64,000 nucleotides of DNA from Candidatus Moraniibacteriota bacterium. GTDB lineage: Bacteria > Patescibacteriota > Minisyncoccia > Moranbacterales > GCA-2747515. Below the pieces are notes generated by a model. The model had not been told where the DNA came from. It saw only the letters and a list, made by a program, of their open reading frames with translations, and searched no databases. The stretch is taken from NCBI GenBank assembly GCA_040772365.1, contig JAXGYI010000005.1, forward strand, positions 5,132-69,131. Reading direction: 5' to 3'. Shown here piece by piece: positions 7,044 through 54,195 of this stretch (its first letter is position 1; each line of letters opens with the position of its first letter). The position numbers and the translations under genes were made by a program.

Positions 7044-7063
7044 TGAAGAAAGAGATCTGTCTG

Positions 7064-10836: not shown

Positions 10837-10949
10837 GAGATCTGTGTGTAGGTAAATTAGCAGTAAGTAGAAGTATAGCAAAGATGGGGGAAAAAGTAAA
10901 TACTTTCTACTATTTTCTATAGCATATTATGTGCGTATTGCTGATCGTG

Positions 10950-11380
10950 TGGAGATGGTGGGAATTGCACCCACGTCCAAATCTGTGAGCCATCAATACG
11001 GTGTTATACGCATAGACGCGGCTTTCGTGCCGGTGCAAACCGGCGAAGTTCAAAAGCGAGTGGATAGCAACGCGTCATGAAAATCTCGCTTTCTATCGTC
11101 AGTGATTGAACCGAACGCGCGTGACGATGCGACGCGAGCGGCGAATCCCATGATTGACACCACGCAGTGACCTATGGGATCTCAGTCGCGTGATGGCTCA
11201 GGCGTTTAAGTTACGCGAGAGACGGTGCAAAGGACGGTGCGAAAGCGTTGGCAATCGCCGTCTTTGCTTTGCTGATGAAGTTTGCACTTATCAAACATGT
11301 ATGTACGGTTTTACGGGACGAACATACGTGCCCGGCGTAGGTATTGGCAGCCGACAAACTGTCGAAAACTAGACATCCCC
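10950..11380 (-). ncRNA. ssrA: tmRNA (ssrA)
   Basis: Minus strand. The 5' GGGGATG pairs with the 3' CATCTCC, including a G3:U70 wobble (the alanine identity element). T-arm GTGGG-TGCAATT-CCCAC and discriminator A are present; CCA is not fully encoded. The 5' region has UUCGAC. An internal tag frame GCA AAC UUC ... GCG UAA reads ANFISKAKTAIANAFAPSFAPSLA*. It lies directly beside smpB. Confidence 0.75.
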
Positions 11381-16441: not shown

Positions 16442-17602
16442 ATGCATATGACAGAAGGTGAAAAAAAGGATACAGCGGTGCCAACGCCAGATGTATCATC
16501 ACAAAAAGAAGATGAGCGTGCACGATGTAGTGGTATTGCATGCTTGAAGAACACGTGCTGTAATGGGAAAAAATCCACGTGGCTGTGGGCAGTTTTGCTT
16601 ATTTTGGCTGCGCTTGCCGTATGGGCATATGTGCACGAAGCAAAGGCGCCAGCAGCATCAGATAATGGCACGGAATCAACTGTACCATCCAAGAAGGTAT
16701 CGGGAAAGAAGGCAGATCAGATTCGTGAAAGAGTACGAGGATTGATTGATGGCAAGTTATTGCAACCCGACACGGATTTTGAAATTGGTGACGTGACAGA
16801 AGAAAGTGGATTGTATAAAATTCAGATCAAGGTTGCGGGACAAGAGGTATCATCTTATATGACGAAGGACATGGATAAATTCATTCCGGAACTGTTACTG
16901 ACAAAGCAGTTGGATGATCTTGATCCAGTAGAGGCGCCAGAACCAGCAAAAACAGAGGTGACAACAAAGACGGATAAACCGGTCGTGGAGGTGTTTGTGA
17001 TGAGTCATTGTCCATATGGCACACAAATTGAAAAGGGTATCCTCCCGGTATTTCGTGCCCTTGGCAACAAGATTGACGCACAGTTCAAGTTTGTTAATTA
17101 TGCTATGCACGAGGAAACCGAATTGGCGGAACAGCTACGCCAGTACTGCATTATGACAAAGGAGCCGCAGAAGTTCTATGATTACCTGGATTGCTTTCTC
17201 GTAAGCAGTGGTTCGGGGGAGAGCGCAACGGCGTGTATGCAAAAAACAGGTATTAACCAGCAGGTAAACGCTCAGTGTGTGCAGGCGACTGATGAACAGT
17301 ATAAGGTGATGGCGCAGTTCAAAGATAAATCAACATGGCAGGGTGGTTCTTATCCTCCGTTTGATATTCATAAAGCGGATAACGAAAAATACAATATCCA
17401 GGGATCACCGACGTTAATCATTAACGGAGAGGAAATTCAGAGTAACCGTGATAGTCAAAGTCTGCTTAATGCGATTTGTTCTGCATTTACAACTGCGCCA
17501 GAGGAGTGCCAGAAAGAGCTTCCTGCAACACAGCCGGCAGCCGGCTTTGGTACGGCGGCAGCTGCTGCTACTGGTGGCGCGATTGATAATGGATCCTGCT
17601 AA
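16442..17602 (+). CDS. Membrane-anchored DsbA/thioredoxin-like thiol:disulfide oxidoreductase
   Basis: 386 aa. Cytoplasmic N-terminal Cys cluster (CSGIACLKNTCC), a TM helix (WLWAVLLILAALAVWAYV), then a thioredoxin fold with the CPYG active site (VFVMSHCPYGTQIE) and a GSPTLIINGEE cis-Pro region. Confidence 0.6.
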   Translation: MHMTEGEKKDTAVPTPDVSSQKEDERARCSGIACLKNTCCNGKKSTWLWAVLLILAALAVWAYVHEAKAPAASDNGTESTVPSKKVSGKKADQIRERVRGLIDGKLLQPDTDFEIGDVTEESGLYKIQIKVAGQEVSSYMTKDMDKFIPELLLTKQLDDLDPVEAPEPAKTEVTTKTDKPVVEVFVMSHCPYGTQIEKGILPVFRALGNKIDAQFKFVNYAMHEETELAEQLRQYCIMTKEPQKFYDYLDCFLVSSGSGESATACMQKTGINQQVNAQCVQATDEQYKVMAQFKDKSTWQGGSYPPFDIHKADNEKYNIQGSPTLIINGEEIQSNRDSQSLLNAICSAFTTAPEECQKELPATQPAAGFGTAAAAATGGAIDNGSC

Positions 17603-29092: not shown

Positions 29093-29377
29093 ATGGCACA
29101 AAAAATTAACAAGGGCATGCTCGTGGAAACACTTGCAGGTAAACTGGATGTGAGCAAGCGTGACGCAGAGCGTTTCGTGGAAGCGATCATTGATGAAATC
29201 ACAACACAGTTGCAGCGTGGCAATGAGGTGGCACTAACAGGTTTTGGTTCGTTTTCCGTATCAAAGCGTGCAGCACGTCAAGGCGTGAATCCAAAAACTG
29301 GAGAGAGAATTCAGATTGCGGCGACAACTGTACCAAAGTTTAAGGCTGGTAAAGCACTGAAGGATGCTGTGAAATAA
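29093..29377 (+). CDS. hup: Nucleoid-associated DNA-binding protein HU
   Basis: 94 aa: MAQKINKGMLVETLA...GFGSFSVSKRAARQGVNPKTGERIQI, canonical HU/IHF fold. A terminator hairpin plus T-run follows at ~29399-29425. Confidence 0.9.
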   Translation: MAQKINKGMLVETLAGKLDVSKRDAERFVEAIIDEITTQLQRGNEVALTGFGSFSVSKRAARQGVNPKTGERIQIAATTVPKFKAGKALKDAVK

Positions 29378-29467
29378 TACCGCAATAGTATTTTATAAGG
29401 AAGCCACCTCGTACAGGGGTGGTTTTCGTTTGCTCACAAACAAATGGCACGTATTTGTGGTATAATA

Positions 29468-29476: not shown

Positions 29477-29557
29477 CAAGAAGATGAAATTTTTTTACTA
29501 TATTCTATGGTGATTACATGGTACAAAAAAGTGCGTGCGAGGAGTGATGTTTCCGTG

Positions 29558-30520
29558 ATGTACATTTTTCTCATAACTCTCTGCATAAGCATAGGTGTTT
29601 TAGTATCACCCGTCTCCGCTGCTCCCACTGGCGGCCTCGTTCCTTGTGGCAGCAATAAATCTGGTACAGCACAGGATGCTTGCACCATCTGTGATCTCAT
29701 TGAAGGTGTGCATGGTATTGTTCAAAAACTCATGTCATGGATGGTGATTGCGGGATTGGTGATTATTACTGTTGCCGGCATCATCTATATTGTCTCTGCT
29801 GGCAATCAAGGACTCACGACAATGGCAAAAAATGCTGTCATCAACACACTGATCGGCATTACCGTCATCCTCACTGCATTTCTTGGTATCACATTTATCC
29901 TCAATAGGGTATTCAATGCCAAAACCGATATGATTGCTGCTGGTGGTCTTTCAATTGCTAATAATGCATGGACATTCACATGCAGTAAGACCAAAGCTAT
30001 AGACACAGGTGGTGGGGGTGGTGTGTCGACGGGTGGTGGGACGCCAACGCCACCATCACAAGGTGGAACACCGCCAGCAACGCCTCCAGCTCCACAGCCG
30101 GGCAATCAACCGCTAGCACGTATGACAAATGCTGAGGCGAAGCAGTATCTCATTGATCAGACAGGTGGCAATATTACAATATGGGAATCAGCAGCCGGAC
30201 GAACGTACGTGCCTGATTTGCAGCAAAGCAGTATTGATGGGATTGTTAATCTACAGAAAGAATCCGGTCTTCGATTTCAAATTACAGGAGCAGCAGAGAA
30301 GGGCGGTGGGCACGCTAGCGGAACCTATTCCCACGCAAATGGATATAAGGTGGATATTAGCGATAAAAATCCAGCGTTAAATAGCTATATCACATCAAAC
30401 TATCAGGAGATTGGAAAACGTAGTGATGGTGCGCGGCAATTTCGTGATCCGCAGGGAAATGTTTACGCATGGGAAACGTGGAAGAATCATTGGGATGTGT
30501 GCTATGCGTGCAAAAAATAA
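29558..30520 (+). CDS. Membrane-anchored peptidoglycan peptidase: shared N-terminal module (signal peptide, Cys-rich segment, 2 TM, Gly5 linker) plus a C-terminal peptidase M15 (VanY/hedgehog-type) domain
   Basis: N-terminal module identical to the next gene. The C-terminal domain has the M15 signature S-x-H-x-x-G-x-x-V-D (SHANGYKVDIS) and E-x-W-x-x-H-W-D (ETWKNHWDV). A Pro/Thr/Gly-rich linker separates the two parts. Confidence 0.55.
   Translation: MYIFLITLCISIGVLVSPVSAAPTGGLVPCGSNKSGTAQDACTICDLIEGVHGIVQKLMSWMVIAGLVIITVAGIIYIVSAGNQGLTTMAKNAVINTLIGITVILTAFLGITFILNRVFNAKTDMIAAGGLSIANNAWTFTCSKTKAIDTGGGGGVSTGGGTPTPPSQGGTPPATPPAPQPGNQPLARMTNAEAKQYLIDQTGGNITIWESAAGRTYVPDLQQSSIDGIVNLQKESGLRFQITGAAEKGGGHASGTYSHANGYKVDISDKNPALNSYITSNYQEIGKRSDGARQFRDPQGNVYAWETWKNHWDVCYACKK
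29570..30023 (+). repeat. 454-bp direct repeat copy 1, ~99.5 % identical to 30586-31039
   Basis: Base-by-base comparison shows only two mismatches (tagtatcacc vs tagcagcacc). It encodes the shared signal-peptide/Cys-rich/2-TM/GGGGG module. Confidence 0.9.
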
Positions 30521-30576
30521 TCGTCCTTTCTTTTTAGTTTGGGATCTGTAGGTATTTATGTTGTTAGTATAGGATC

Positions 30577-31632
30577 ATGAAAAAACTCATAACTCTCTGC
30601 ATAAGCATAGGTGTTTTAGCAGCACCCGTCTCCGCTGCTCCCACTGGCGGCCTCGTTCCTTGTGGCAGCAATAAATCTGGTACAGCACAGGATGCTTGCA
30701 CCATCTGTGATCTCATTGAAGGTGTGCATGGTATTGTTCAAAAACTCATGTCATGGATGGTGATTGCGGGATTGGTGATTATTACTGTTGCCGGCATCAT
30801 CTATATTGTCTCTGCTGGCAATCAAGGACTCACGACAATGGCAAAAAATGCTGTCATCAACACACTGATCGGCATTACCGTCATCCTCACTGCATTTCTT
30901 GGTATCACATTTATCCTCAATAGGGTATTCAATGCCAAAACCGATATGATTGCTGCTGGTGGTCTTTCAATTGCTAATAATGCATGGACATTCACATGCA
31001 GTAAGACCAAAGCTATAGACACAGGTGGTGGGGGTGGTGCGCCAATGACGCCGCAACCACATGCTGACCGACCTGCACCACCTCCTGGTAATTTAGCACA
31101 GGGATGCCATCACTACGATCAGGCTTTTCATAGAGCATCGAGCGGTGATCGGGAGCTGGAATGTCTCCTGAAGGGTATTGCCATGGCAGAAAGCACATGT
31201 AATCCTTCCGCACAAAATGGCAATGGATGTGGTCTCATGCAAATTGAAAGCAATACGTGTCAGTACTATAAGGACCATCCAGAAGAAAGTATCATGCGTG
31301 CGGCGGAGATTTTACGTACAAATAAAGCGCAGCTAGATCGTTATAGTCATTTTTCCATTGGTAGTGGATTTGGACAAGGGAGTGAAACGGTGCAATATGG
31401 TGGCGTAACATATTTTACAGGAAATGATGATCTTATCGCATCATATAATGCAGGCACTGGAGGGCGTTTGGCAAAAAATCCGTTTCATGCATCAGCTGAC
31501 TGCCCCGACACTGGACAAGGCGCGACGCCGGCATGGCAGTGTCATATTAATCCGGGGGGATTTGGCAGTACAACACAGCGCTATGTGCCAAATGTACAGA
31601 AATATCAGCGAGAGTGTTTATCTGGAAAATAA
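30577..31632 (+). CDS. Membrane-anchored lytic transglycosylase: shared N-terminal module plus a C-terminal GH23/SLT domain
   Basis: The C-terminal domain carries SLT motifs: the catalytic ES in GIAMAESTCNPSAQNGNGCGLMQI, and AYNAG-like IASYNAGTGG. Many extracytoplasmic cysteines. Confidence 0.65.
   Translation: MKKLITLCISIGVLAAPVSAAPTGGLVPCGSNKSGTAQDACTICDLIEGVHGIVQKLMSWMVIAGLVIITVAGIIYIVSAGNQGLTTMAKNAVINTLIGITVILTAFLGITFILNRVFNAKTDMIAAGGLSIANNAWTFTCSKTKAIDTGGGGGAPMTPQPHADRPAPPPGNLAQGCHHYDQAFHRASSGDRELECLLKGIAMAESTCNPSAQNGNGCGLMQIESNTCQYYKDHPEESIMRAAEILRTNKAQLDRYSHFSIGSGFGQGSETVQYGGVTYFTGNDDLIASYNAGTGGRLAKNPFHASADCPDTGQGATPAWQCHINPGGFGSTTQRYVPNVQKYQRECLSGK
30586..31039 (+). repeat. 454-bp direct repeat copy 2
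   Basis: See copy 1. The offset between copies is exactly 1016 bp. Confidence 0.9.
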
Positions 31633-31639
31633 AACATCT

Positions 31640-33004
31640 ATGCAGAAACAATCAACAATGACATTTCACGGTGGGGCGGGATCAGTGACGGGCGCAAATT
31701 TTTTATTAGACACCGGTGGGCGAAAGATCCTCGTGGATTGCGGCTTACAGCAAGAGGGTGCACGGTGCTATGTGGAGGATGTGGATTTTTCCTATAATCC
31801 GGCTGATGTGGATACCCTCGTCATTACACATGCGCATGCCGATCACATTGGCAAAATTCCTAAGCTAGTGAAGGATGGTTTTCGTGGAACCATTTACTCT
31901 ACTCCAGCAACTAAAGATTTGTCAGCGATAATGCTGGAAGACGCGTTGATGATTCTGACGCAGGAGGCGGATGCGCTTGGGTGTTCGCCGCTATATGATC
32001 GCTCTGATATACGTCGTGCGATGGAACTGTGGCATACGATGGACTACCATCGTCCATTTGTTGTGGGCGATGATGTGACGGCGTCATTTTTAGATGCAGG
32101 ACATGTACTCGGAAGTGCTATGGTCCGTATGGAGCGCGCTGGTCGTGTCAGTGTATTTACAGGTGATCTAGGGAATTCACCGGAGTTGATTTTGCCCGAT
32201 ACGGAGAGGGTAGAGGGTGCGCACTATATGGTAATGGAGAGTGTGTATGGTGATCGCAATCATGAATCACGCAATGACAGGACCGAAAAGTTGGCGCAGG
32301 TGATTCGCGATAACGTGAAGCGCGGTGGGACGCTTTTGATCCCTGTGTTTGCCCTGCAGCGTGCACAGATTTTACTCTACGAGATTAATAGACTCGTTGA
32401 GGGAAATCGTGTGCCACATGTCCCAGTGTACTTTGATGCACCACTTGCACAGCGCGTGACGGATATCTATCGGCGTTATCAGCACCTCTACAATGCACGT
32501 GTACGTGCAGAAATTAAGCGTGGCGACGACATTTTTGATTTTCCGCAATTTGTGAGTATACGCAATGTAGCGGATTCATTACGAATTGATAAGAAGAAGG
32601 GTCCGAAGATTGTGATCGCTAGTTCTGGTATGAGTAATGGTGGACGGGTACGTATGCATGAACGTCAGATTTTAGGCAATCGCAAGAATACGATTCTCTT
32701 TATTGGGTATCAGGCATTTGGGACACTTGGTCGTGAAATTGCAGAGCGGCGCAGCAAAGTTTTTATTGATGGCACATGGGTACGTGTACATGCGCACATT
32801 GAAAGTATCAGTGGCTACTCGGCACACAAAGACAGTGATCAGCTTGTGGCATTTGTAGAGGATACGGCGGCTACGGTGGAGCATGTTTTTCTTGCTATGG
32901 GTGAACCAGCGGCGGCACAGAAACTCGCGCAGCGATTAGTGGATACGTATCATATTGCTGTAACTGTTCCACGTAAAGGTGATGTAGCATCTCTTCATTT
33001 TTAA
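31640..33004 (+). CDS. MBL-fold / beta-CASP family ribonuclease (RNA-metabolising metallo-beta-lactamase)
   Basis: HAHADHIGKIP (HxHxDH), then beta-CASP and RMMBL-like C-terminal regions (...GYSAHKDSDQL..). The start is taken at the ATG at 31640 just after the upstream stop; the ORF-track start at 31424 overlaps the previous gene. Confidence 0.7.
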   Translation: MQKQSTMTFHGGAGSVTGANFLLDTGGRKILVDCGLQQEGARCYVEDVDFSYNPADVDTLVITHAHADHIGKIPKLVKDGFRGTIYSTPATKDLSAIMLEDALMILTQEADALGCSPLYDRSDIRRAMELWHTMDYHRPFVVGDDVTASFLDAGHVLGSAMVRMERAGRVSVFTGDLGNSPELILPDTERVEGAHYMVMESVYGDRNHESRNDRTEKLAQVIRDNVKRGGTLLIPVFALQRAQILLYEINRLVEGNRVPHVPVYFDAPLAQRVTDIYRRYQHLYNARVRAEIKRGDDIFDFPQFVSIRNVADSLRIDKKKGPKIVIASSGMSNGGRVRMHERQILGNRKNTILFIGYQAFGTLGREIAERRSKVFIDGTWVRVHAHIESISGYSAHKDSDQLVAFVEDTAATVEHVFLAMGEPAAAQKLAQRLVDTYHIAVTVPRKGDVASLHF

Positions 33005-33013
33005 AAACTTTTT

Positions 33014-33349
33014 ATGGTAGATGGCTATACGACGGTTGACGTAATGACAGCATACACACTCCTTACGGGTACTGAGGCAGGGCAGTATTGTGTGGTAGAC
33101 GTGCGATCACCGCAGGAGTACGCAACAGCGCATATTGCGCAATCCATGAATATACCGCTGAATACACTTGCAGAGGCATCTCTACCAAAGGATCGTACTA
33201 TCGTTGTTGCATGCGTCAGTGGCAATCGTTCTGGTGTGGCATGCGACTTTCTGCATCAGCAGGGCTATCACTGCGCTAATCTTGCTGGTGGCATCAGTGC
33301 GTGGATTGCGCACGGCTTACCGGTTGCGCGTGGTAGTATAGCGGTATAG
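33014..33349 (+). CDS. Rhodanese-domain sulfurtransferase (single domain)
   Basis: 111 aa with active-site loop CVSGNRS and the typical rhodanese alpha/beta signature (VVDVRSPQEY...). Confidence 0.8.
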   Translation: MVDGYTTVDVMTAYTLLTGTEAGQYCVVDVRSPQEYATAHIAQSMNIPLNTLAEASLPKDRTIVVACVSGNRSGVACDFLHQQGYHCANLAGGISAWIAHGLPVARGSIAV

Positions 33350-33439
33350 ACATGATGAATTTGGTTATTTTGTAAAAAGCTATTATACTAAAAAGAGTGA
33401 CTCACAATCATTTGTTTGAATTAGTGAAAAATAAAAATT

Positions 33440-35278
33440 ATGCGCGGTCTTGGGTCGGCAAAAATTGCCAAAGGATCATACATTTTTCTATGTGATGATG
33501 ACAATCTTGCACGTGACACGTTTCGTGTACGCACAAGCGAAGATGGTCTGCTTTTTCGTCCGTTGAGTGATGATGCGAAGATTGTGAATATTACGGGTCC
33601 GACAGATGCTATAGAGTCTTGTACAGAGTTTCATATGTCACAGGATGGGCGGATGTATTACATGACCTACTACGTACCACAGAAAAAGGTTCTAGGCATT
33701 GCGCAGTCACGCAACCTGATTGACTGGGAAAAGTCGTGCAGCGTAGAGGATGTTTCTGGTGGTGCAAAAATTGTATCGGATTACCTCTATGCTGGACGGA
33801 CAGTGATGATTGCCGGTGGTGAGGCACTACGACTGTATGTGACATCTGATGGAAAACGTTGGGTCCGTGCCAAGCGCAACTTGATTGATGGGAGAGATCA
33901 TGGGAAGCAGAAGGGGTCTTTTATGGTGCTGGATGCACAGGTGATTGAGGATGGTGTATTTGTGCTCTACGCATATGTCACATCGACTCCATCAGGTACA
34001 GCGACCTACGCTATTCATGGTGCATTATGTGCCTATGGCGATCCCACACAAATAACATGGCGCACGCAATCACCGGTTTATTCTCTGGCGCCAGAAGTCT
34101 ATGGACACGCAATATTGTTTGGCGCAGGCATTCATAGTGAATATTTCGTATCTTACTGGATGCGCGACGATGAAGAATTATTTCTCTTACGACATCCATA
34201 CACCTATGAGCCGCGACCAGAGGATATGCCGCAGGAAGCGCATGGTGCACAATCGGAGCAAAGTGAGTCGCCGACAGTATTTGCATTGGAGCGTGCGCCG
34301 GATAATCCGGTTCTTGTGCCAAATCCCGATCGTTCATGGGAATCTAAGGCGACGTATAATCCGACAGCATTTCTCTGTGGGGGTCATGTGCATATCATCT
34401 ATCGTGCTGATGGTGATGATAATATCTCCGTGTGGGGGCATGCACTGAGTATTAATGGTACCGATATTGCCGATCGGTCAAAGAGTTGTATTTTTCGGCG
34501 TAAGGTGATGGTGGAAAATAAGGATTTGCCACGCATTTATGCATCGGGTACAAATACAAATGGCGGATGTGAAGATCCGCGCGCAGTTGTGATTGATGGG
34601 ACAGTATACGTGACATTTACGGCATTTGATGGATGGAGCTCTGTGCGTATGGCGCTGACAAGTATTGACCTTGATGATTTTTTACAAAAGCGTTGGAAGT
34701 GGAAGAAGACGCGATTAATCTCCCCTGCAGGGGAAATGAATAAGAATTGGGTGCTATTTTCTGAGAAGGTAAACGGAAAATTTGCTATTCTACATAGCTT
34801 TTATCCGAAAATTCTCATTGACTACTTCGATGACCTTGATGAGCTAGATGGCGAGACGCGATTTATTCGTAGCAATAATACACGACCATTTGATACAACA
34901 CGCACCTGGGATAGTTGGTTTCGTGGAGTAGGTCCTCCTCCTATTAAAACGGAAGATGGATGGCTCGTTCTGTACCATGCGATGATGCATAATAAGCCAG
35001 ATCGCTATCGTATCGGGGCGTTACTTCTTGATCTCCATGATCCTACAAAAGTTCTCTATCGTAGCACAAGGCCGATTTTGGAACCGCAGGAGCACTATGA
35101 AAATCACGGACATAAGTGGGGTGTTGTTTTTACGTGTGGTGCCGTCGTGAAAGATGGAACGCTGTTTGTATACTATGGTGGCGCGGATGCATGTGTATGT
35201 GTTGCAACAGCACCAATTGATGCGTTCTTGCGCGATCTCAAACAGACAGGTGTTGTGCAAATGACACTCTCAACGTAG
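33440..35278 (+). CDS. GH130-family (DUF377 beta-propeller glycosidase/phosphorylase) protein with two domains; the N-terminal one is degenerate
   Basis: C-terminal half has NPVLVPNPDRSWESKATYNPTA...HIIYRA...EDPR...YYGGADACVCVATA. The N-terminal half is a diverged copy (…CTEFHMSQDGRMYYMTYYV replaces the EDPR..YY.TYTA block). Confidence 0.6.
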   Translation: MRGLGSAKIAKGSYIFLCDDDNLARDTFRVRTSEDGLLFRPLSDDAKIVNITGPTDAIESCTEFHMSQDGRMYYMTYYVPQKKVLGIAQSRNLIDWEKSCSVEDVSGGAKIVSDYLYAGRTVMIAGGEALRLYVTSDGKRWVRAKRNLIDGRDHGKQKGSFMVLDAQVIEDGVFVLYAYVTSTPSGTATYAIHGALCAYGDPTQITWRTQSPVYSLAPEVYGHAILFGAGIHSEYFVSYWMRDDEELFLLRHPYTYEPRPEDMPQEAHGAQSEQSESPTVFALERAPDNPVLVPNPDRSWESKATYNPTAFLCGGHVHIIYRADGDDNISVWGHALSINGTDIADRSKSCIFRRKVMVENKDLPRIYASGTNTNGGCEDPRAVVIDGTVYVTFTAFDGWSSVRMALTSIDLDDFLQKRWKWKKTRLISPAGEMNKNWVLFSEKVNGKFAILHSFYPKILIDYFDDLDELDGETRFIRSNNTRPFDTTRTWDSWFRGVGPPPIKTEDGWLVLYHAMMHNKPDRYRIGALLLDLHDPTKVLYRSTRPILEPQEHYENHGHKWGVVFTCGAVVKDGTLFVYYGGADACVCVATAPIDAFLRDLKQTGVVQMTLST

Positions 35279-35354
35279 TGTGTGTCATGGTCTATAGCAT
35301 GAGGAGATCCTAGTAGTCGATAATAATACATAATTCGTATAACATGTATAAATT

Positions 35355-37319
35355 ATGGCGATGACAATGAAGCGTTATCCAAACAATCCTATTCTTGGGC
35401 CGGATCGTACACGTGTATGGGAGGCACAAGCAGTATTTAACGGCTGTCCAATTCGTGACGAAAAGGGGTATCATTTTTTGTATCGTGCTCTCGCGCAAAC
35501 AGAGAAGGACCCTGTTAGTGGCGCAGATTTTGCGCGATCGACAATTGGGTATACATTTAGCCCCAATGGTTACTGTTTTGATGGTGAGCGACGCCAGCTT
35601 ATCGCGCCTCAAGAGTCCTGGGAAAAATATGGCTGTGAGGATCCACGCGTAACAAAAATTGATGATACGTATTACATTACCTATACGGCATTGGCAGATT
35701 TTCCGCACACACCGGAGGGTATTTCTGTTGCGGTAGCCACGACAAAAGACTTTCGTACAATTGATACACGTCACCGCGTCACGCCCTTTAACGCCAAGGC
35801 AATGGTTATTTTTCCAGAGCGTATTAACGGCAAGATTGTTGCACTTCTTACAATGAATACTGATCAGCCTCCGGTACGCATTATGATTGCGGAGTTTGAT
35901 ACACCAGAGCAGATGTGGGATCCGCGGTACTGGCGTACATGGATGCAGGACCTTGATGCACACACGTTGCACTTTCAACGGTCGCTTACTGACCATATTG
36001 AAGTTGGTGCACCACCGGTGAAAACACAAGATGGATGGCTTTTTTTCTATTCCTACATTCGTAACTATCACGGAGGTGATCCGGTCTTTGGTATTGAGGT
36101 GGCACTCTTAGATTTGGAACGCCCTCTACGTGTCACGGGTCGTACGATTACGCCACTGCTCGTGCCAGAGGAAATTTATGAGTGGTATGGTATTATACCC
36201 CGCATTACATTTCCTTCCGGTGCAACTGTGGATGGTGATGAAGTGCGTCTGTATTATGGTGCAGCCGATACAGTGTGTGCAGTAGCGACGGCATCGCTAG
36301 CAGAGCTTTTAGCACATATCAAATTGAAGGACTGCGAAGAATGTGTGCCAGAGGGTGTGCCATTTGTTACCTGTGAGCGATTTGAGGGTAATCCGATTAT
36401 TGAGCCGACGCGTGATTTTGGATGGGCGTCGCGATACACACTTAATCCAACAGCAATCGTGGATGAGGAGAAGGTTCATATTATCTATCGTGCACAAGAT
36501 GAGCGTGATACATCGCGTATGGGTTATGCTGTGAGTGAGGATGGCTTACGTCTATCGTATCTCTCGCAAGACCCTATTTACGTGCCACGCATTCCAGAAG
36601 AAATTCGCGATGACGAGGGATTTTCTGGTTGTGAAGATGCACGGATTTCTCGTATCGATGATCGCTTCTATATGTGCTATACTGCATACAATGGCCATGG
36701 ACCAGCGCGCATTGCATTTACATCCATCTCTGTAGAAGATTTCCGTGCACGACGCTGGGATGCGTGGAGTATGCCGAAAATCATCTCGCCAGATGGCATG
36801 GATGATAAAAATTCCTGTGTTCTTCCAGAAAAAGTCAATGGTCAGTACGTCTTCTTTCATCGCCTCAAGCACACTATCTGGATGGATTTTGTAGATGACC
36901 TGGAGTTTTCTGATGGACGTACACTTGGTGGGCAGAGTATTATGTGGGCACGTCCAGAAACATGGGATAGCGAGAAGGTGGGTATCGCTGGTGTGCCGAT
37001 GAAAGTGGGTAAGGAGTGGTTGCTGATCTACCATGCGCTCTCTAGTCATGACGGGCTCTATCGGCTTGGCGCGGCGTTGTTGGATGTAGAGCATTCTAAA
37101 GTGACGTCGCGTTTAGATTATCCGATTCTTGAACCACATGCGGATTATGAAAACAAGGGACTGCGTCCCGGAACGGTCTTTTCGTGCGGACACGTGATGT
37201 GGCACGATGATATGATCTACATCTACTACGGCGGTGCCGATGAAGTGGTTGGTGTGGCAATGATTTCACGCGGTTGCCTACTCACCGCACTAGAGGAGCA
37301 AAAGAAGCGGATGAAGTAG
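35355..37319 (+). CDS. GH130-family protein with two complete tandem GH130 domains
   Basis: Domain 1: YPNNPILGP...WEAQAVFNG...YHFLYRA...EDPRVTKIDDTYYITYTA...YYGAADTVCAVATA. Domain 2: EGNPIIEP...NPTAIVDEEKVHIIYRAQ...CEDARISRIDDRFYMCYTA...YYGGADEVVGVAM. Confidence 0.7.
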   Translation: MAMTMKRYPNNPILGPDRTRVWEAQAVFNGCPIRDEKGYHFLYRALAQTEKDPVSGADFARSTIGYTFSPNGYCFDGERRQLIAPQESWEKYGCEDPRVTKIDDTYYITYTALADFPHTPEGISVAVATTKDFRTIDTRHRVTPFNAKAMVIFPERINGKIVALLTMNTDQPPVRIMIAEFDTPEQMWDPRYWRTWMQDLDAHTLHFQRSLTDHIEVGAPPVKTQDGWLFFYSYIRNYHGGDPVFGIEVALLDLERPLRVTGRTITPLLVPEEIYEWYGIIPRITFPSGATVDGDEVRLYYGAADTVCAVATASLAELLAHIKLKDCEECVPEGVPFVTCERFEGNPIIEPTRDFGWASRYTLNPTAIVDEEKVHIIYRAQDERDTSRMGYAVSEDGLRLSYLSQDPIYVPRIPEEIRDDEGFSGCEDARISRIDDRFYMCYTAYNGHGPARIAFTSISVEDFRARRWDAWSMPKIISPDGMDDKNSCVLPEKVNGQYVFFHRLKHTIWMDFVDDLEFSDGRTLGGQSIMWARPETWDSEKVGIAGVPMKVGKEWLLIYHALSSHDGLYRLGAALLDVEHSKVTSRLDYPILEPHADYENKGLRPGTVFSCGHVMWHDDMIYIYYGGADEVVGVAMISRGCLLTALEEQKKRMK

Positions 37320-42258: not shown

Positions 42259-42325
42259 GGAGTTTTGTGAGCGTGATGTATGATGAGAGCGTCGTAGTAT
42301 ATATGAGAGTGTGGGAGAATGTTCT

Positions 42326-43297
42326 ATGCCACAGCAGGAATTTACACGAAAAAAAGTTCAGTCGTTAACCTTGGGGGAGAAATTACGACATTTGCGTGAG
42401 GAGCGGCGTTTACGCGCAGTTGATTTGTCGCGCAAGATTTTTGTGAAAGTCGCGTATATTAATGCACTGGAGGAAGGGCGATATGATCAACTCCCAACAA
42501 AAGTTTATGTTAAGGGATTTGTACGTTCGTACGCGCGATATTTTGGTGTACCAGAGGATGTTCTGTTGCACCTCTTTGAGCGAGAGTATAGCGTTTTTCG
42601 CAACATTAATGCCGCAGATCATGAAGAGGAGGTAAGCCGCATGCCACGTCGTCTACGATTTGTCATAACGCCACGGACGGTTGTTGCATTTGTGGGGATT
42701 AGTGCTCTTCTCGGTGTCGGCGTTTACCTGTTTTACGGTGTAGATAATTTTATTTCCTCACCATGGTTAGTTGTTGATGAGCCAGTGATGGGCGCAGTTA
42801 TTGATGGGGATATGGTAACAGTTGTCGGACGGACGCGTCCAAATTCTCAGGTGCGCATTAACGGGCAGGCGGTGTTGGCAGATATGGATGGATTATTTCG
42901 TGAAGATGTGCGACTTGCAGTTGGAGCAAATACAATTCTTATTGAGAGCACCAATACATTTGACAAGACAACAACGCAGCACTTGCTTGTTGAGGCACGC
43001 TACACGGTAGCGCAGTTAGAAGAGGAGCAGTCATCCAATCAGATTCTGATTACGGCTCAAGATACTGCTATCACGGTAGTAATCCACGATGGCACATCAG
43101 TCATTTTTGATCAAAAAATTGCTACCAATGAAACTGTGCGTGTAGAGTATGCTACGGAAAGTGTATTACTGAGCACATCTGATGCTAAGCATACACTTGT
43201 GGGGTCTGATCATGAGAGCATGATGCCACTTGGTGCAAGGAATGTACCGGCGCAAGAGATCGTTTTTCCTCTTGAGCAGGAGAAAAAGCTGCAGTGA
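42326..43297 (+). CDS. rodZ: RodZ-like cytoskeletal protein (XRE-type HTH, TM helix, DUF4115-like C-terminal domain)
   Basis: LTLGEKLRHLREERRLRAVDLSRKIFVKVAYINALEEGRYDQLPTKVYVKGFVRSYARYFGV is RodZ-type HTH. A TM segment lies at ~aa 120-140, followed by a beta-rich C-terminal domain. Start is chosen at the ATG at 42326, which has GGAG 9 nt upstream. Confidence 0.6.
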   Translation: MPQQEFTRKKVQSLTLGEKLRHLREERRLRAVDLSRKIFVKVAYINALEEGRYDQLPTKVYVKGFVRSYARYFGVPEDVLLHLFEREYSVFRNINAADHEEEVSRMPRRLRFVITPRTVVAFVGISALLGVGVYLFYGVDNFISSPWLVVDEPVMGAVIDGDMVTVVGRTRPNSQVRINGQAVLADMDGLFREDVRLAVGANTILIESTNTFDKTTTQHLLVEARYTVAQLEEEQSSNQILITAQDTAITVVIHDGTSVIFDQKIATNETVRVEYATESVLLSTSDAKHTLVGSDHESMMPLGARNVPAQEIVFPLEQEKKLQ

Positions 43298-43413
43298 TGG
43301 GCTGTGGACAAGAAACAATTATGACAATAGAGGAACTGTGTTATAATGTGCGTATCACGGGCGTGTTGTTACCGTGGGGTGTAATTTGATGAATGGTGGG
43401 GGCATACAATATT

Positions 43414-44457
43414 ATGGCAAAGAAGAAGAGTGAAAAAGTGAGTGATAAAACAGGGCAGGCGGCACAGACAAAAAATGTTGATGCCGTTGTTGATGAAATT
43501 CGTACAAAATTTGGTGATGGCATGCTGATGAAGCTGGGCGAGGTGCGGCATGTGGATGTTGCGGCAATTCCAACAGGCTCGCTATCACTAGACATTGCGA
43601 CTGGTGTAGGCGGTGTGCCACGTGGACGTATTGTGGAAATTTATGGTCCGGAATCATCTGGTAAAACAACACTAGCGCTTCATATTGCAGCAAATGCGCA
43701 ACGTGCAGGCGGTACAGCGGCGTTTGTAGATGCTGAGCATGCACTTGATCCGGAGTACGCAAAAAATATTGGCGTCAACACTGCGGAATTATTAGTGTCA
43801 CAACCGGACGCAGGTGAGCAGGCATTGGATATTGTGGAAACACTTGTACGGTCCAATGCTGTGGATGTTATTGTTGTGGATTCTGTAGCAGCATTGACAC
43901 CGCAGGCGGAAATTGATGGAGAGATGGGCGATCAGCATGTTGGTCGTCAGGCGCGACTGATGAGTCAGGCATTGCGGAAGTTGACGCCGGTGATTGCGCG
44001 GTCGAACTGTATTGTCATTTTCATCAATCAGATTCGCATGAAGATCGGTGTCATGTTTGGCAATCCAGAGACAACAACTGGTGGTAACGCATTAAAGTTT
44101 TATGCATCAATGCGCATGGATGTGCGACGTAGTGCGCAAATCAAGAAAGGCGATGAGGTTGTTGGCAATCGCACAAAAGTGAAGATTGTGAAAAATAAAG
44201 TTGCGCCGCCATTTCGCATTGCAGAATTTGACATTATGTATAATGAGGGCATTTCACTGTCTGGTGACGTATTGGACACAGGGACTGCTCTTGGCGTGCT
44301 GGATAAGCGGGGCAATTCGTATACATATAAGGAAGAGAAGTTAGGTGTTGGGCGTGAGGCGGTGAAGACATTTCTAAAAGCGCATCCCAAGATTATGGAC
44401 GCTGTCGTTAAGGATGTGCATGGAGCTATTGCCGAGCGACGTAAAAAAGAGGTGTAA
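43414..44457 (+). CDS. recA: Recombinase RecA
   Basis: Canonical RecA ([24 protein letters not shown]2 loop). The start is taken at MAKKKSEK. An extended -10 TGTTATAAT lies ~60 nt upstream; no obvious LexA/Cheo box was seen. Confidence 0.95.
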
Positions 44458-44524: not shown

Positions 44525-45568
44525 ATGGGATTGTTTTCATCACGTTCAGCATATTCGTTAGGAGTGGATTTTGGGACGCAGTCGATCAAAGCTGTGGAGT
44601 TGCGCAGTGTTAAAGGTAAGGCGCATCTATCGAACTATGCTACGGTCAATGTTACAGATCTTAAAGAGGTTCCCTCGGAGTATAATGACGATTATACGAA
44701 GCGTCTGTCTGGGGCGCTTGCTGCGCTTTTTACACAGATGAAACCAAAGACCAAGCGCGCAGTTGTTTCCATACCAAGCTTCAACGGTCTTGTGGTGATC
44801 GTAGATTTCCCTCGTATGCGGGAGAAGGATATTGCATCTGCTATTAAGTTTGAGTCACGTAAATATATTCCCGCATCACTTGATGAGGTAAATGTCAGCT
44901 GGGAAATTTTAGAAGAGACGGAGGAAGAGAAGGCAAAGCCAACCATGAAGGTGCTGTTAGTAGCTGCGCCAAAAAGTGAGGTGCAGTACTACGACGGACT
45001 TTTTCAGGGAACAGGTATTCAGATCGACTCACTGGAGTTAGAGGCTTTTTCGATCGTGCGTGCCGTTGTGGGTGGCACACAAGGACGTTTTGTTGTGGTA
45101 GATATTGGCGCACGCACAACGAGTGTGATTTTGGTACAGGATGGTGTTGTGCATATGAGTCGTAGTGTGGATGTTGGCGGTGCGGATGTGACAACAGCAA
45201 TTATGGAGGGATTGAATATTTCTTATGATCGCGCACGTACCCTCAAAGAGGGTGGTGAAAATTTTTTTACGGGACCAACACGTGTTAATTTCGCGTCTCT
45301 CGGTGCGATTGCGAATGAAGTGAAGCGTGTCCTAGATACGCAGCGGTCGAATGTTGTTGATTCTCTCGTGCTCAGTGGAGGTGGTGCGCAGCTCGTGGGT
45401 ATTGATGAGTACTTTTCACAGACGGCGCACGTGCATGTCGTGAAAGGCAACCCACTGAGTCGTGTTGTTTATGATCCGACAATGTCTGGTTTTCTGCCGG
45501 ATCGTGCAGTCTCATTTACTGTGGCGATTGGGTTAGCATTGCGCGATAGTGAGGTAAATTCAGAATAA
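44525..45568 (+). CDS. pilM: Type IV pilus assembly protein PilM (actin-like ATPase fold)
   Basis: 347 aa with an ASKHA fold (SLGVDFGTQSIKAVEL...). It heads a pilMNO-like gene order. Confidence 0.85.
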   Translation: MGLFSSRSAYSLGVDFGTQSIKAVELRSVKGKAHLSNYATVNVTDLKEVPSEYNDDYTKRLSGALAALFTQMKPKTKRAVVSIPSFNGLVVIVDFPRMREKDIASAIKFESRKYIPASLDEVNVSWEILEETEEEKAKPTMKVLLVAAPKSEVQYYDGLFQGTGIQIDSLELEAFSIVRAVVGGTQGRFVVVDIGARTTSVILVQDGVVHMSRSVDVGGADVTTAIMEGLNISYDRARTLKEGGENFFTGPTRVNFASLGAIANEVKRVLDTQRSNVVDSLVLSGGGAQLVGIDEYFSQTAHVHVVKGNPLSRVVYDPTMSGFLPDRAVSFTVAIGLALRDSEVNSE

Positions 45569-45640: not shown

Positions 45641-46345
45641 ATGGCTTCTGGACTAGGCTTTAAAAACACATCAGCACAAAAGAGTACGCAGTCGTCACGT
45701 AAAAAAATGGTTGCACCGGCGCTACTGATCACATTTGGCGTCTTACTCATCGCAGGCGCAACATATGGAGGGCTATTGCTGTGGCACAGTATTTTACAAA
45801 AGAAGGTGCGCACATTAGTTACGGACATTGGGAATGTTAATGCAGATATTCAGAAGGTAGTAGAGGGCAGGGTTGGTGACTTCGGTGTGCGCGCAACAAC
45901 TATGCAGAAGGATCTCTACAAGGACTATGAAGCAAACGATATTCTTCGTGAGATTGAAAAAATCATGATCAAGAAGAGTTCTGATGGTAGCGGTGATCGC
46001 GTTGTGTTAAAGTCGTTCCAGTATAACGCTGGTGCGTATGATAAGCAGTCCTTTGGTAATACAGAGCGCACTGTGACTGGTAAGGGTAATGTAACTATCT
46101 CTGCTGATGCAGACACATTTGATGTGATGGCGCAGCAGGTGGAAAAATTCAAGGAAAGCGATCTCTTTGATGCTGTAAAGGTTGGTACAACAGATCGCAA
46201 TGAGTATGGGCGTATTATTTTCACGCTCACGATGGATGTTAATCGCCATGATGAGTCTCCATATGAAAAAACAGCAGCAACATCAAATGCAGTATTTGGT
46301 GTGGCAGAGGAGTATGCGCCCAACAGTGAAACGCTGGGTCTGTAA
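45641..46345 (+). CDS. pilN: PilN-like bitopic pilus assembly protein
   Basis: Short cytoplasmic N-tail, a single TM (APALLITFGVLLIAGATYGGLLLW), and a periplasmic/extracellular domain. Assigned mainly by position downstream of pilM. Confidence 0.45.
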   Translation: MASGLGFKNTSAQKSTQSSRKKMVAPALLITFGVLLIAGATYGGLLLWHSILQKKVRTLVTDIGNVNADIQKVVEGRVGDFGVRATTMQKDLYKDYEANDILREIEKIMIKKSSDGSGDRVVLKSFQYNAGAYDKQSFGNTERTVTGKGNVTISADADTFDVMAQQVEKFKESDLFDAVKVGTTDRNEYGRIIFTLTMDVNRHDESPYEKTAATSNAVFGVAEEYAPNSETLGL

Positions 46346-46386: not shown

Positions 46387-47091
46387 ATGATTATACGCAT
46401 TCTCATGTTTCCGGTAATCCTGCTGATCGTGCTCTATATTGTCATCGGTCGTATTGCACCGACTACGAAATTAATTAGCGCGGATCGTGTAGAGGTTGCA
46501 GAAAAGACACAGGAGCTCTCGCAGGCCAATGCACGGCTGGACAAGATGAAGAGCTTTGCGACAAGTGTAGATCAGCATCCGCAAGAGCAGGAATTCGTTC
46601 TTCATTTCGTGCCTAATAATCAACGAGAGGAGATCATTCTGAGCGATGTGTCACAGATGGCACAGGATGCAGGCCTTTCTCTATTCTCTTTCGGATTTGC
46701 TGAAGGTCGACAAGATGCGCGATCTGGTGCAATAGCACAAAATCGTGCAAGCTATATTGAGACAAAGGTGATTGCATCGGGATCATATGATGCGTTTAAG
46801 AAATTTGCTGATCAACTCTTTCGTATTAAGAGGCTTTATGCATTTAAGACATTTGAATTAAGCAAGCAAGAGCACGTGCAGAAAGAGGGTGAAGAGCCCG
46901 TGACACAGGATATGCTCGATGGTGTTATATCATTCACCTATGGATATATTCCTGGTCAGGCGCATGTTGATCCCATGGTGTTTAATCCTACAGTGAACTT
47001 TGATGACATTAAGGCTATCATGAATGCTGCAACGCAAACAGATCCATTGATTGCAGAGGCGCAGGAGCGCCCAAATCCTTTTCTTCCATAA
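46387..47091 (+). CDS. pilO: PilO-like bitopic pilus assembly protein
   Basis: N-terminal TM (IIRILMFPVILLIVLYIVIG), a coiled-coil segment, and a C-terminal alpha/beta domain. Position is consistent with pilO. Confidence 0.45.
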   Translation: MIIRILMFPVILLIVLYIVIGRIAPTTKLISADRVEVAEKTQELSQANARLDKMKSFATSVDQHPQEQEFVLHFVPNNQREEIILSDVSQMAQDAGLSLFSFGFAEGRQDARSGAIAQNRASYIETKVIASGSYDAFKKFADQLFRIKRLYAFKTFELSKQEHVQKEGEEPVTQDMLDGVISFTYGYIPGQAHVDPMVFNPTVNFDDIKAIMNAATQTDPLIAEAQERPNPFLP

Positions 47092-47100
47092 AGAGAAAAC

Positions 47101-49047
47101 ATGAGTGAAGATCGTCTACAATCACAAAATAATACGATTGTTTTTGATGATGTGTCAGAAGAGCGCTTGGATGATGTTGCGCAGCAGGATGTGTCAGTTG
47201 CACCGAGCTTAACAGCATCTGGTGATGGTGCAGTGCTGATTGCAGAAGATGATGTGAGGGATAGTTCTGATACAGGAGGTGTTGTGCAAAGTGATACGGC
47301 TGTGTCAACGGATGCTGCGGCGACGGTATCGGGTGTTGAAGTGCCTGCGGAGAAAGAATTTGCGCCTGACGCGCAGGAGGATGCTGCCGAGCAAAGTTTA
47401 CAACAGCGCGCAGAAGCCATGGGTGTCAAGGCGTTGGATGATGTGCCGGAAAATGTACAGCGTGAGGCAATGATTCTCTTGGCAGAGGATATTGCGCGAG
47501 AGCATCGTATGGTAGTTTTTGCTAAAGATGATGCGACAGAAACGCTGCACGTTGCAATGCTTGATCCACAAGACGTATACGCTTCCAACGTTTTACGGTT
47601 TATGGCACGGAAGGATCGATTGAGTATTGATGTATATCTCACGACGGCGGAGGTCTTAAAGAAGCTCTTTGAGTTTTATGCAAGTGCAGAGGACGCAGTG
47701 AAGAAAGTCGTGCAGTCATTTGAGGATGAAGAGAGTAGCGTTGCAGAAAAGAAAAAAGATACTTTTACGATTTTGCAAGAACGCGAAACTATTCAAGATG
47801 CACCAGTGGCGAAGTTGGTACATGTGATTATTAAGCATGCGCTGGACGGCGGTGCATCTGATGTACACATTGAGCCGATTGACCAGATCTATCGCGTGCG
47901 TTTTCGGCAGGATGGTGTTTTGCACGCATCGCTGACATTTCCACAAGAAGTGGGACGCGCAGTGATTTCTCGTATCAAGATTTTATCTAACCTAAAAATT
48001 GATGAACGACGTAAGCCGCAAGACGGGCGTTTTCGTATCAATGATAAGGGGAACGATATTGACTTTCGCGTCTCAAGCTTGCCAGTTGTAGAGGGAGAAA
48101 AAATCGTGATGCGTGTTTTAGAGAAGGATCGTCAAACATTTGATTTGGCGCAGCTGGGTCTCATGGGAACGCAGCATGAGATGTTTTTGCGACGTGTCCA
48201 TGATCCCTATGGCATGATTTTGATGACGGGTCCTACAGGATCTGGAAAGTCAACGACGCTATATGCATTTTTGAAAATTTTAAATAATGAAGAACGTAAT
48301 ATTATTACACTGGAAGATCCTGTGGAGTACTTTGTACCCGGCATCAATCAGTCACAGGTGAAGCCGGAAATTGGGTATACATTTGCCAGTGGCCTGCGTA
48401 GCATCTTGCGCCAAGATCCAAATATTATTATGGTAGGTGAGATTCGTGATGGAGAAACAGCGGAGCTTGCTGTGCATGCAGCGCTTACTGGTCATCTGGT
48501 ATTTTCTACGGTGCATACCAACAATGCTATTGGTGCATTGCCGCGGTTGATCGATTTGGGGATTGAGTCATTCCTCATCGCATCGGCGGTACGCGTTATT
48601 GCTGCGCAGCGACTTGTGCGTAAGATTTGTGAGAATTGCAAAGAAGAGCTCCAAGTGCCCAATGCCGTGATCGAAAAAATTAAGAAGGATTTGGAGGGTG
48701 TGACCGTGGAAGAGCAGAAGAAGTATGGTGTTGATATTGCTGCTAATGGTATTGTCTTATATCATGGCGCAGGGTGTAAAAATTGTGGAGGATCGGGACT
48801 TAAAGGGCGCATCGCTCTTTACGAGGCAATTGAGCTTGATAATGAGATGCAAAATATCATTGTAGAAGGTGAAGATAGTTTTGTGAAGGCAGATGCGTAC
48901 GCGCGTAAACATGGCTTTATTACTTTGAAACAAGATGGTATACTAAAGGTGCTCTTGGGGATGACAACATTTGCAGAGCTAGAGCGTGTAACAGAGGGTG
49001 ATCTGGAGATTAGTGGCACAGTGGATGACATGCCAGATGAGCGATAG
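47101..49047 (+). CDS. pilB: Type IV pilus assembly ATPase PilB (GspE family)
   Basis: 648 aa. Acidic N-terminal extension, GSPII_E N-domain, Walker A LMTGPTGSGKSTTLYAFL, and a tetracysteine motif CENC...CKNCGGSG. Confidence 0.9.
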   Translation: MSEDRLQSQNNTIVFDDVSEERLDDVAQQDVSVAPSLTASGDGAVLIAEDDVRDSSDTGGVVQSDTAVSTDAAATVSGVEVPAEKEFAPDAQEDAAEQSLQQRAEAMGVKALDDVPENVQREAMILLAEDIAREHRMVVFAKDDATETLHVAMLDPQDVYASNVLRFMARKDRLSIDVYLTTAEVLKKLFEFYASAEDAVKKVVQSFEDEESSVAEKKKDTFTILQERETIQDAPVAKLVHVIIKHALDGGASDVHIEPIDQIYRVRFRQDGVLHASLTFPQEVGRAVISRIKILSNLKIDERRKPQDGRFRINDKGNDIDFRVSSLPVVEGEKIVMRVLEKDRQTFDLAQLGLMGTQHEMFLRRVHDPYGMILMTGPTGSGKSTTLYAFLKILNNEERNIITLEDPVEYFVPGINQSQVKPEIGYTFASGLRSILRQDPNIIMVGEIRDGETAELAVHAALTGHLVFSTVHTNNAIGALPRLIDLGIESFLIASAVRVIAAQRLVRKICENCKEELQVPNAVIEKIKKDLEGVTVEEQKKYGVDIAANGIVLYHGAGCKNCGGSGLKGRIALYEAIELDNEMQNIIVEGEDSFVKADAYARKHGFITLKQDGILKVLLGMTTFAELERVTEGDLEISGTVDDMPDER

Positions 49048-53121: not shown

Positions 53122-53134
53122 AGTTAATAGGGAT

Positions 53135-54142: not shown

Positions 54143-54195
54143 AGATGTGTACTATAATAAGAAAACACGGCAGGTGTATGCCGTGTATGTCTATG

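Follow-up and report, generated by a model that had tools for sequence, protein, structure and literature searches.

How two adjacent genes can begin with nearly identical DNA and then continue into unrelated enzymes, and what such a pair is for, is the question raised by a 64,000-nucleotide stretch (hereafter the window) of the genome of a Candidatus Moraniibacteriota bacterium, a member of the Patescibacteriota (assembly GCA_040772365.1, contig JAXGYI010000005.1, positions 5,132 to 69,131 of the forward strand). Gene 1 (29558..30520, plus strand), an open reading frame of 320 amino acids, joins a VirB2-like pilin module to a Gly/Pro/Thr linker and a predicted LAS-fold peptidase, which we call domain X. 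Gene 2 (30577..31632, plus strand), of 351 amino acids and 100% identical to protein P0002, carries the same module, which a Pro-rich linker connects to an SLT lytic transglycosylase. The pair is a conserved cassette of Moranbacteria-like Patescibacteria, and we consider it probable that its two pilin-anchored products together correspond to the VirB1-type wall hydrolases, in which both domains are united. As judged from the comparison of genomes, the two modules are kept identical by repeated gene conversion between the tandem copies, that is, by concerted evolution, and not by one recent duplication.

The shared module and the two enzymatic domains

Direct comparison of 29570-30023 with 30586-31039 revealed two mismatches in 454 nucleotides (99.6% identity) at an exact offset of 1016 bp, a result recovered by a repeat search and in full agreement with the first-pass annotation of this DNA, which had been made from the letters and their translated reading frames. 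The mismatches lie at 29604 (T/C) and 29606 (T/G). The repeat starts at codon 5 of gene 1 and codon 4 of gene 2 and ends just past a GGGGG run, and outside either end identity falls to background at once. Copy 1 (29570..30023, plus strand) encodes most of the signal peptide, a Cys-rich outside segment, a two-helix hairpin, an outside W-x-F-x-C segment and the glycine run, and is matched by the module profile at E = 4e-44; copy 2 (30586..31039, plus strand) is matched at 5e-46, and a custom module profile search found these two copies and no third in the window. The peptide motifs quoted in the annotation were all found in the translations; its cysteine pattern, C-x9-C-x2-C, had to be corrected to C-x11-C-x2-C (PCGSNKSGTAQDACTIC). 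Gene 1 has an alternative start at 29507 that yields the NCBI product P0001 (337 amino acids, 100% identical), and an AGGAG sequence at 29540-29544 lies upstream of the start at 29558.

Judged by its relatives, the module is a member of the VirB2-like pilin family of Patescibacteria (Pfam PF18895, T4SS_pilin, named for the type IV secretion system, T4SS). An exhaustive search with the 154-amino-acid module as query recovered 1844 representative clusters at E <= 1e-3; PF18895 was matched by 121 of the 140 best relatives (E <= 1e-3) and TrbC/VirB2 by one, at 7e-26. A profile built from module relatives found the window copies at E = 1e-44 to 1e-46. The residues that are nearly invariant in the family (V27, P28, C29, G30, C41, C44, G49, G73, Y76, S79, G81, A89, K90, G99, F139 and C141) are all present in the window module, together with the layout of PF18895-type proteins, in which a signal peptide is followed by two hydrophobic helices with a short loop and conserved cysteines are placed on the outside segments. 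The family is thus a known one, but its role is not established.

The AlphaFold2 model of gene 1 bears out the signal peptide and two-helix membrane segment that had been read from the letters. A signal-peptide helix precedes two helices of about 35 residues (residues 44-79 and 84-118; 29687..29911, plus strand; pLDDT 78-93) separated by a four-residue turn, and the nearly invariant A-K pair (A89, K90) belongs to the short loop that joins the module helices. The signal peptide would be cleaved between VSA and the alanine that follows. In VirB2-type pilins both ends of the hairpin point outward. The same topology, with both ends facing the outside, is predicted for the module because secreted enzymes are attached on either side of it in relatives, and disulfides among the four conserved cysteines on the two outside segments are plausible.

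Among its relatives the module stands alone (about 140 amino acids) or occupies an N-terminal, C-terminal or central position in longer proteins, and across the Candidate Phyla Radiation (CPR) its partner domains include SLT, LAS peptidase, Peptidase_S8, NlpC/P60 and Amidase_6. One protein (L014, 7225-9714) combines Peptidase_S8, the module and SLT, in that order, and in P0078 and P0080 the S8 domain precedes the module alone. Some CPR proteins contain two to seven pilin modules per polypeptide (L013, 973-1620 and 1823-2872, minus strand; P0075; P0104), and others have long linkers with Cys-rich inserts (P0008, P0011).

The enzymatic part of gene 2 was readily identified. PF01464 (SLT) matched residues 186-295 (31132..31461, plus strand) at 31.9 bits, above the cut-off of 21.3, and gene 2 orthologues are annotated with the same family. 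Orthologues show 58-93% identity. Family-1 lytic transglycosylases are characterized by a catalytic Glu in an E-S motif, by GLMQ and by AYNxG; the translation of gene 2 holds AMAES (with the catalytic Glu-Ser), GLMQ and SYNAG. Gene 2 therefore carries, by profile and motifs, a family-1 (GH23) lytic transglycosylase, as the first-pass annotation had recognized, and its predicted action is on the glycan strand. A Cys-rich C-terminal domain follows the SLT core, up to 31629.

The enzymatic part of gene 1 resisted identification by sequence. Identity with gene 2 ends at 30023, and a Gly/Pro/Thr-rich linker found in gene 1 only (30024..30097, plus strand), predicted to be disordered (pLDDT <50 at residues 144-182), leads to domain X (residues ~181-320; 30098..30517, plus strand). 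Searches of Pfam (no peptidase family at E <= 1), NCBIfam, PHROG and PDB sequence profiles gave no match to this domain, and among 33 domain-X proteins (gene 1 and 32 relatives) none matched a peptidase model at E <= 0.01 or an M15 or M74 profile. Fold comparison succeeded where sequence searches had failed: domain X modelled alone (pLDDT 91.4, pTM 0.85) matches the LAS/Hedgehog-DD-peptidase fold, whose superfamily includes VanY and VanX. With the full-length model of gene 1, a Foldseek search of the PDB returned nothing under E = 0.7. Consequently, the label 'peptidase M15/VanY-like' given in the annotation is right as a resemblance of fold and wrong as a family.

Ten residues are invariant in the alignment of the 33 sequences (H252, S258, H259, G262, K264, D266, E306, H311, W312 and D313), and the consensus reads TGGxExGHASGTYSHxNGYKVD ... 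ExxHWD. The arrangement H259-x6-D266 with H311, and with E306 close by, corresponds to what we take to be the zinc-site pattern of the LAS superfamily (H-x(3-6)-D, a distal His and an acidic residue), so that H259, D266 and H311 would be the zinc ligands. In its predicted fold and its H-x6-D ... E ... H residues domain X resembles LAS enzymes such as the M15 proteins VanX, VanY and LdcB, the Zn DD-peptidase, M74 MepA and the L-Ala-D-Glu endolysins of the Ply500 and T5 type, a likeness extended by a relative (P0035) in which two PG_binding_1 domains are joined to domain X. It differs from them in matching neither M15 nor M74 profiles and in its motif SHxNGYKVD ... ExxHWD. The model thus points to a zinc peptidase of LAS fold, of a family so far undescribed, that presumably cuts the peptide part of peptidoglycan.

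This family is large. A scan of species-representative genomes for SHxNGYKVD revealed at least 592 loci, mostly small secreted proteins, plus the CPR fusions; outside the CPR (loci L021-L089 of the genome scan) they occur in Streptomyces, Nocardioides, Amycolatopsis, Knoellia, Kribbella, Deinococcus, Herpetosiphon/Chloroflexia and Myxococcales. Domain X defines a large unannotated family, of LAS fold by prediction, with many members in Actinobacteria, Deinococcus and Chloroflexi as well. In one domain-X protein (P0034) PAN domains are attached.

Evolution of the tandem modules

The tandem arrangement, with the domain-X gene followed by the SLT gene, was found in at least six further Moranbacteria-like assemblies, and in each lineage the two modules resemble each other closely. 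They are 100% identical over 421 nucleotides in L011 (Moraniibacteriota UBA12141), 94.3% over 318 nucleotides in L014 (Moraniibacteriota BF4_177) and 95.7% over 140 nucleotides, up to the contig end, in L015 (Moranbacteria GW2011). Gene 2 of L006 is an exact repeat of gene 1 over 110 nucleotides, again up to the contig end, and in L010 the 3' 290 nucleotides are 100% identical and the 5' 110 nucleotides diverged. In a relative that is 77% identical to the window, represented by L007 and L009, the modules agree at 100% over 451 nucleotides; L009 opens with the end of a domain-X gene (CETWKNHWDVCYQCR, up to the stop), followed by the spacer and the module.

Comparison between genomes gave the opposite pattern. 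Module identity is 93-100% within a genome and 36-78% at the amino acid level between genomes, where domain X retains 42-52% and SLT 58-84% amino acid identity. Across the lineages the X and SLT domains are orthologous and conserved, and they keep the same order. Synonymous divergence (dS) between the window and the L007 module is 1.23, with dN/dS = 0.12, and synonymous sites of the lineages with the tandem pair are saturated relative to the window (dS 1.2-2.0). Since synonymous sites are near saturation between species and yet identical between paralogues, protein-level constraint does not explain the identity. The two mismatches of the window are themselves polymorphic between strains: in L090, a 99.9% identical strain (1759-2212 aligned with window 30586-31039), copy 1 carries the bases of copy 2 at both sites.

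The first-pass annotation had left the choice between recent duplication and ongoing gene conversion, and the cross-genome comparison and dS values uphold the latter and speak against the former. A single very recent duplication of the module (or a domain swap) in this genome, without ongoing conversion, would leave near-perfect identity and a sharp boundary just as conversion does. It fits poorly with a tandem pair that has orthologous X and SLT domains in lineages separated by dS of 1.2-2.0 and with modules that are 93-100% alike in each lineage and only 36-78% alike when other genomes are compared. Duplication would have to be repeated with the same precise boundaries in each of at least five lineages, and recurrent gene conversion is therefore the far more parsimonious explanation; we regard the duplication as very unlikely. 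A conversion tract would stop where homology stops, at the linker, and RecA is encoded in the window (43393-44457). In distant CPR (L017, L018) the X-type and SLT-type fusions are adjacent still and their modules have diverged, as expected where divergence has come to block recombination.

In L010 (2-415) and in L014 (7225-9714) the module comes after a long N-terminal extension (…NYLNTGR[FY]xEFxxVLDT…EYCYxSHAYQxCGF…). It belongs to the peptidase gene in L010 and to the SLT gene in L014, where it includes the subtilase S8 domain, and such placement on different paralogues in different genomes would be expected if recombination inside the shared module shuffled its flanks.

Homogenization of this kind recalls tuf genes, rRNA operons and, as a case limited to a segment, pilE/pilS: in all of them the paralogues of one genome are near-identical but differ from those of other genomes, with homogenized synonymous sites and sharp tract boundaries. 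Here, unlike in those systems, conversion would be confined to one domain segment of otherwise unrelated genes, homogenizing the constant part and generating no variation. Concerted evolution limited to one domain is seen here with unusual clarity: the module stays identical in each lineage and yet, from lineage to lineage, has changed faster than the catalytic domains.

Near-identical tandem repeats also call for scrutiny of the assemblies, since they could result from a collapsed or spuriously duplicated repeat or from strain variants stitched in tandem. The repeat exceeds short-read length, related contigs (L006, L015, L091) break within it, L007/L008 and L009 resemble alternative assembler paths through a loop, and L010 is a mosaic from a co-assembly. 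Against this, the unique junction formed by the end of the X gene, the spacer, the unique 5' end of gene 2 and the module was recovered in seven independent assemblies (L091, L010, L009, L006, L011, L014 and L015) from different samples and assemblers, and both genes were assembled complete in tandem in L010, L011 and L014. Contig L091 (JGI) extends from RNase Y across gene 1 and reaches 24 nucleotides into copy 2, and L090 (Logan) covers gene 1 at 99.9% identity. The junction in seven independent assemblies establishes that the tandem is real, and an artefact is highly improbable.

Two groups of contigs deserve separate mention. L007/L008 have HU, a module, SLT and beta-CASP without a peptidase gene, and L009 has the X end, the spacer, a module and an X-like linker, with an apparent frameshift 3' of the module; they may be assembler paths through the perfect 451-nucleotide repeat or real deletion/amplification variants of the 1016-bp unit. 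Contig L010 (CAYRUU010000004.1), from a co-assembly and labelled 'uncultured Micavibrio', which looks like a binning error, is a mosaic relative to window 29625-36521. Identity to the window is about 80% in its flanks and over the 3' half of SLT (dS 1.22), whereas the part corresponding to 29750-31245 (the 3' part of module 1, domain X, spacer, module 2 and the first half of SLT) is 98-100% identical (dS 0.09), with a sharp switch near SLT residue 225. Either two species have recently exchanged the cassette, or the co-assembly is chimeric.

Function of the pair and type IV secretion

In the mechanism that we favor, each product would be exported by its predicted Sec signal peptide and held in the membrane by the same VirB2-like module of about 150 amino acids, which would run from the Cys-rich outside segment through an inward helix, a cytoplasmic Ala-Lys loop and an outward helix to the outside W-x-F-x-C segment. 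The flexible Gly/Pro linker would then expose the peptidoglycan hydrolase on the outer side of the membrane. Since the module is common to both enzymes, they would be sent to one envelope site, probably that at which the T4SS apparatus handles VirB2-like pilins, and both bond types of the bacterium's own wall would be cut there, opening it. We infer the own-wall target, the substrate bonds and the T4SS link.

So arranged, the pair would resemble the VirB1-type hydrolases of monoderms (PrgK of pCF10, TraG of pIP501 and CwlT of ICEBs1), in which a membrane-anchored, extracytoplasmic glycan cutter (SLT or muramidase) is combined with a peptide cutter and which are thought to open the thick wall for an envelope-spanning machine. 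Those proteins, however, combine the two activities in a single chain behind a plain N-terminal anchor and cut peptides with a CHAP or NlpC/P60 cysteine enzyme. Here the activities are divided between two genes, a pilin-family hairpin serves as anchor, the peptidase is predicted to be a LAS-fold metalloenzyme and the window has no T4SS cluster; the likeness is one of function only. With the VirB2-like pilins of Patescibacteria the pair shares the PF18895 family, the signal peptide, the conserved cysteines, the two-helix hairpin and the occurrence as tandem paralogues. The members of described pilin arrays are small and highly divergent, with a mean identity of 25% and a maximum of 54% (Quinonero-Coronel et al. 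2025, PMC12102498), unlike the modules described here, which agree at 99-100% and each carry a peptidoglycan hydrolase.

Evidence for a link with type IV secretion comes from relatives, whose fusions sit in pilin arrays and beside a VirB4-like ATPase. In L019 (Portnoybacteria) and L030 (Zambryskibacteria) a VirB4-like ATPase (P-loop_TraG, AAA_10, DUF87) is followed, 1.1-1.7 kb further on, by a pilin-X gene of the same orientation, and the genes around them form tight same-strand strings (L019, 29-7816; L030, 1914-8029). Nine neighbours in these strings (145-404 amino acids) have no Pfam match and are candidates for divergent T4SS components. Elsewhere, arrays of four to six small PF18895 genes are headed by the pair (L014) or by pilin-X alone (L002). 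Most Patescibacteria with VirB2 have no recognizable VirB1 wall hydrolase (PMC12102498). In Southlakia, a Saccharibacterium, the T4SS cluster with its array of VirB2-like pilins is essential (Wang et al. 2023, PMC10633639), and so are a peptidase and a lysozyme homologue encoded just 3' of virB4 (PMC12102498, PMC10633639, PMC12857230). T4SS and VirB2-like arrays are essential in the only genetically tractable Patescibacterium, where their role has been called completely unknown (PMC11665869, PMC10633639).

Several observations weigh against the mechanism that we favor. Against PF18895 the window proteins reach 20.5 and 19.8 bits, under the Pfam cut-off of 26.6 (E about 5e-4 to 8e-4; 5e-4 for copy 1), so that the VirB2/TrbC likeness guessed at in the first-pass annotation is upheld by the best relatives and not by the scores of the window proteins themselves. 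Gene 1 has E-x4-H where most relatives have E-x2-H, with two extra residues between E306 and H311. Unlike T4SS-encoded PF18895 pilins, the pair has no T4SS gene nearby: no VirB4-like ATPase or other T4SS gene was detected among the large window open reading frames scanned, and no VirB4 lies within 30 kb. The neighbours of the pair are housekeeping genes, and a type IV pilus cluster, some 13 kb further downstream, encodes the sole envelope machine nearby. Homogenization, finally, could be a neutral by-product of tandem repeats, with no functional need for identical modules.

Because the context in this genome is that of housekeeping genes, a role of the two products as general autolysins for growth and division of the own wall, with the hairpin a mere anchor, no tie to T4SS and a neutral identity of the modules, stays a serious rival, possible although doubtful. 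The order RNase Y, HU and pilin-fusion gene is kept in L005, L006, L007, L090 and L091 as in the window, an M23/Csd3-like peptidase adjoins the pair in the window and in L001, the -10 element upstream (see below) is conserved and looks constitutive, VirB4 is absent within 30 kb, and MltG, a RodZ-like gene and FtsK are all encoded in the window, where the annotation had placed them together with the M23 gene. A mere anchor, however, would not need the four outside cysteines that the module keeps along with every other nearly invariant pilin residue, nor does this role account for the fusions found next to VirB4-like ATPases in two lineages and at the head of pilin arrays in another two, or for purifying selection on the module (dN/dS 0.12).

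At the other extreme, the products might be enzyme-bearing pilin subunits, extracted by a T4SS and built into or displayed on a VirB2-type pilus, from which the hydrolases would attack the wall of a host cell and in which identical modules would ensure equal incorporation. Judged by its relatives, the module belongs fully to the pilin family, many secreted hydrolases (SLT, LAS peptidase, subtilase S8, NlpC/P60, amidase) are found across the CPR at either of its ends, the long linkers with Cys-rich inserts of P0008 and P0011 would extend reach, and pilin arrays are essential to the epibiotic growth of Southlakia (PMC10633639). No pilus of such a type has been demonstrated in these organisms, though, and the context in the window is a housekeeping one. 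Moreover, a globular domain of 140-180 amino acids on each subunit is hard to fit into the packing of VirB2 pili known from the structures of the F and T pili. Display on a pilus for attack on a host wall is therefore possible but unsupported, and we hold it to be improbable.

A broader reading, to which we give a small but appreciable probability, takes the pilin module as a general carrier by which secreted enzymes are brought to a T4SS-dependent surface structure, either onto it or to its base, the fusions being the 'missing VirB1'; they might then also be the tools with which an epibiont breaches a host wall, and conversion would keep the carriers interchangeable for the machine. The analogy with polymorphic toxins drawn in the first-pass annotation, with a constant trafficking N-terminus and swappable toxic C-termini directed against competitors, draws on the constant module, the different C-terminal enzymes and the many enzyme types across the family. 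As that annotation itself had noted, no immunity gene is present, the gaps of 56 and 7 nucleotides after the two genes being devoid of reading frames; the C-terminal domains are orthologous, in fixed order and not strain-variable, and the locus lies among core genes. The analogy has to be given up as exceedingly improbable.

Pilin modules fused to a lytic transglycosylase and a putative metallopeptidase, sometimes directly beside a VirB4-like ATPase, are candidates for opening the wall, and possibly also for attacking that of a host. Each component is of a known kind. We found no description of pilin-hydrolase fusions in the literature, including the accounts of PMC12102498 and PMC10633639, and the combination, together with domain-limited concerted evolution across lineages, appears to be new to description. 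Its interest would rise if the link to the essential and unexplained T4SS of Patescibacteria proved true.

Flanking sequences and neighbouring genes

The two genes are separated by a unique spacer of 56 nucleotides without a reading frame (30521..30576, plus strand). Upstream, the pair is set apart from the HU gene (29093-29377) by a terminator-like hairpin at 29403..29432 (plus strand), GCCACCTC-GTACA-GGGGTGG followed by TTTTCGTTT. A similar GC-rich hairpin and T-run follow HU in the 77% identical relative L007 (CCCC-GCACA-GGGG, then TGGTTTTCAT). An extended -10-like element, TGTGGTATAAT, lies 5' of gene 1 at 29456..29466 (plus strand), is kept in L007 upstream of the first pilin-fusion gene there and may act as a promoter. 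Both elements were read by eye and are supported by conservation; a promoter/terminator scan gave nothing over shuffled expectation and did not flag the window hairpin.

Genes upstream in the window include rpoB, rpoC, the M23/Csd3-like peptidase, RNase Y and HU. Gene 2 is separated by 7 nucleotides from the next gene, and downstream lie a beta-CASP nuclease, two GH130 genes, PhoH and FtsK. A RodZ-like HTH_25 protein is encoded at 42311-43297 and MltG/YceG at 53093-54142. The type IV pilus cluster follows RecA and comprises PilM (44525-45568), an unassigned open reading frame of 234 amino acids (45641-46345), PilO (46387-47091), PilB (47101-49047), PilT (49526-50632) and PilC (50658-51866); the T2SSE and T2SSF proteins of the window are part of this cluster. 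The protein at 16442-17602, called DsbA-like in the annotation, gave borderline thioredoxin-fold matches only (Thioredoxin_4, 22.7 bits against a cut-off of 23.2).

The two GH130 genes (33440-35278 and 35355-37319) are adjacent paralogues related to mannoside phosphorylases, each with a long N-terminal extension without a Pfam match. The window also encodes tRNA-Leu(CAG) (7063-7147), tRNA-Lys(TTT) (54195-54268) and, on the minus strand at 10947-11380, a tmRNA (Rfam, 92.9 bits) with the predicted tag ANFISKAKTAIANAFAPSFAPSLA.

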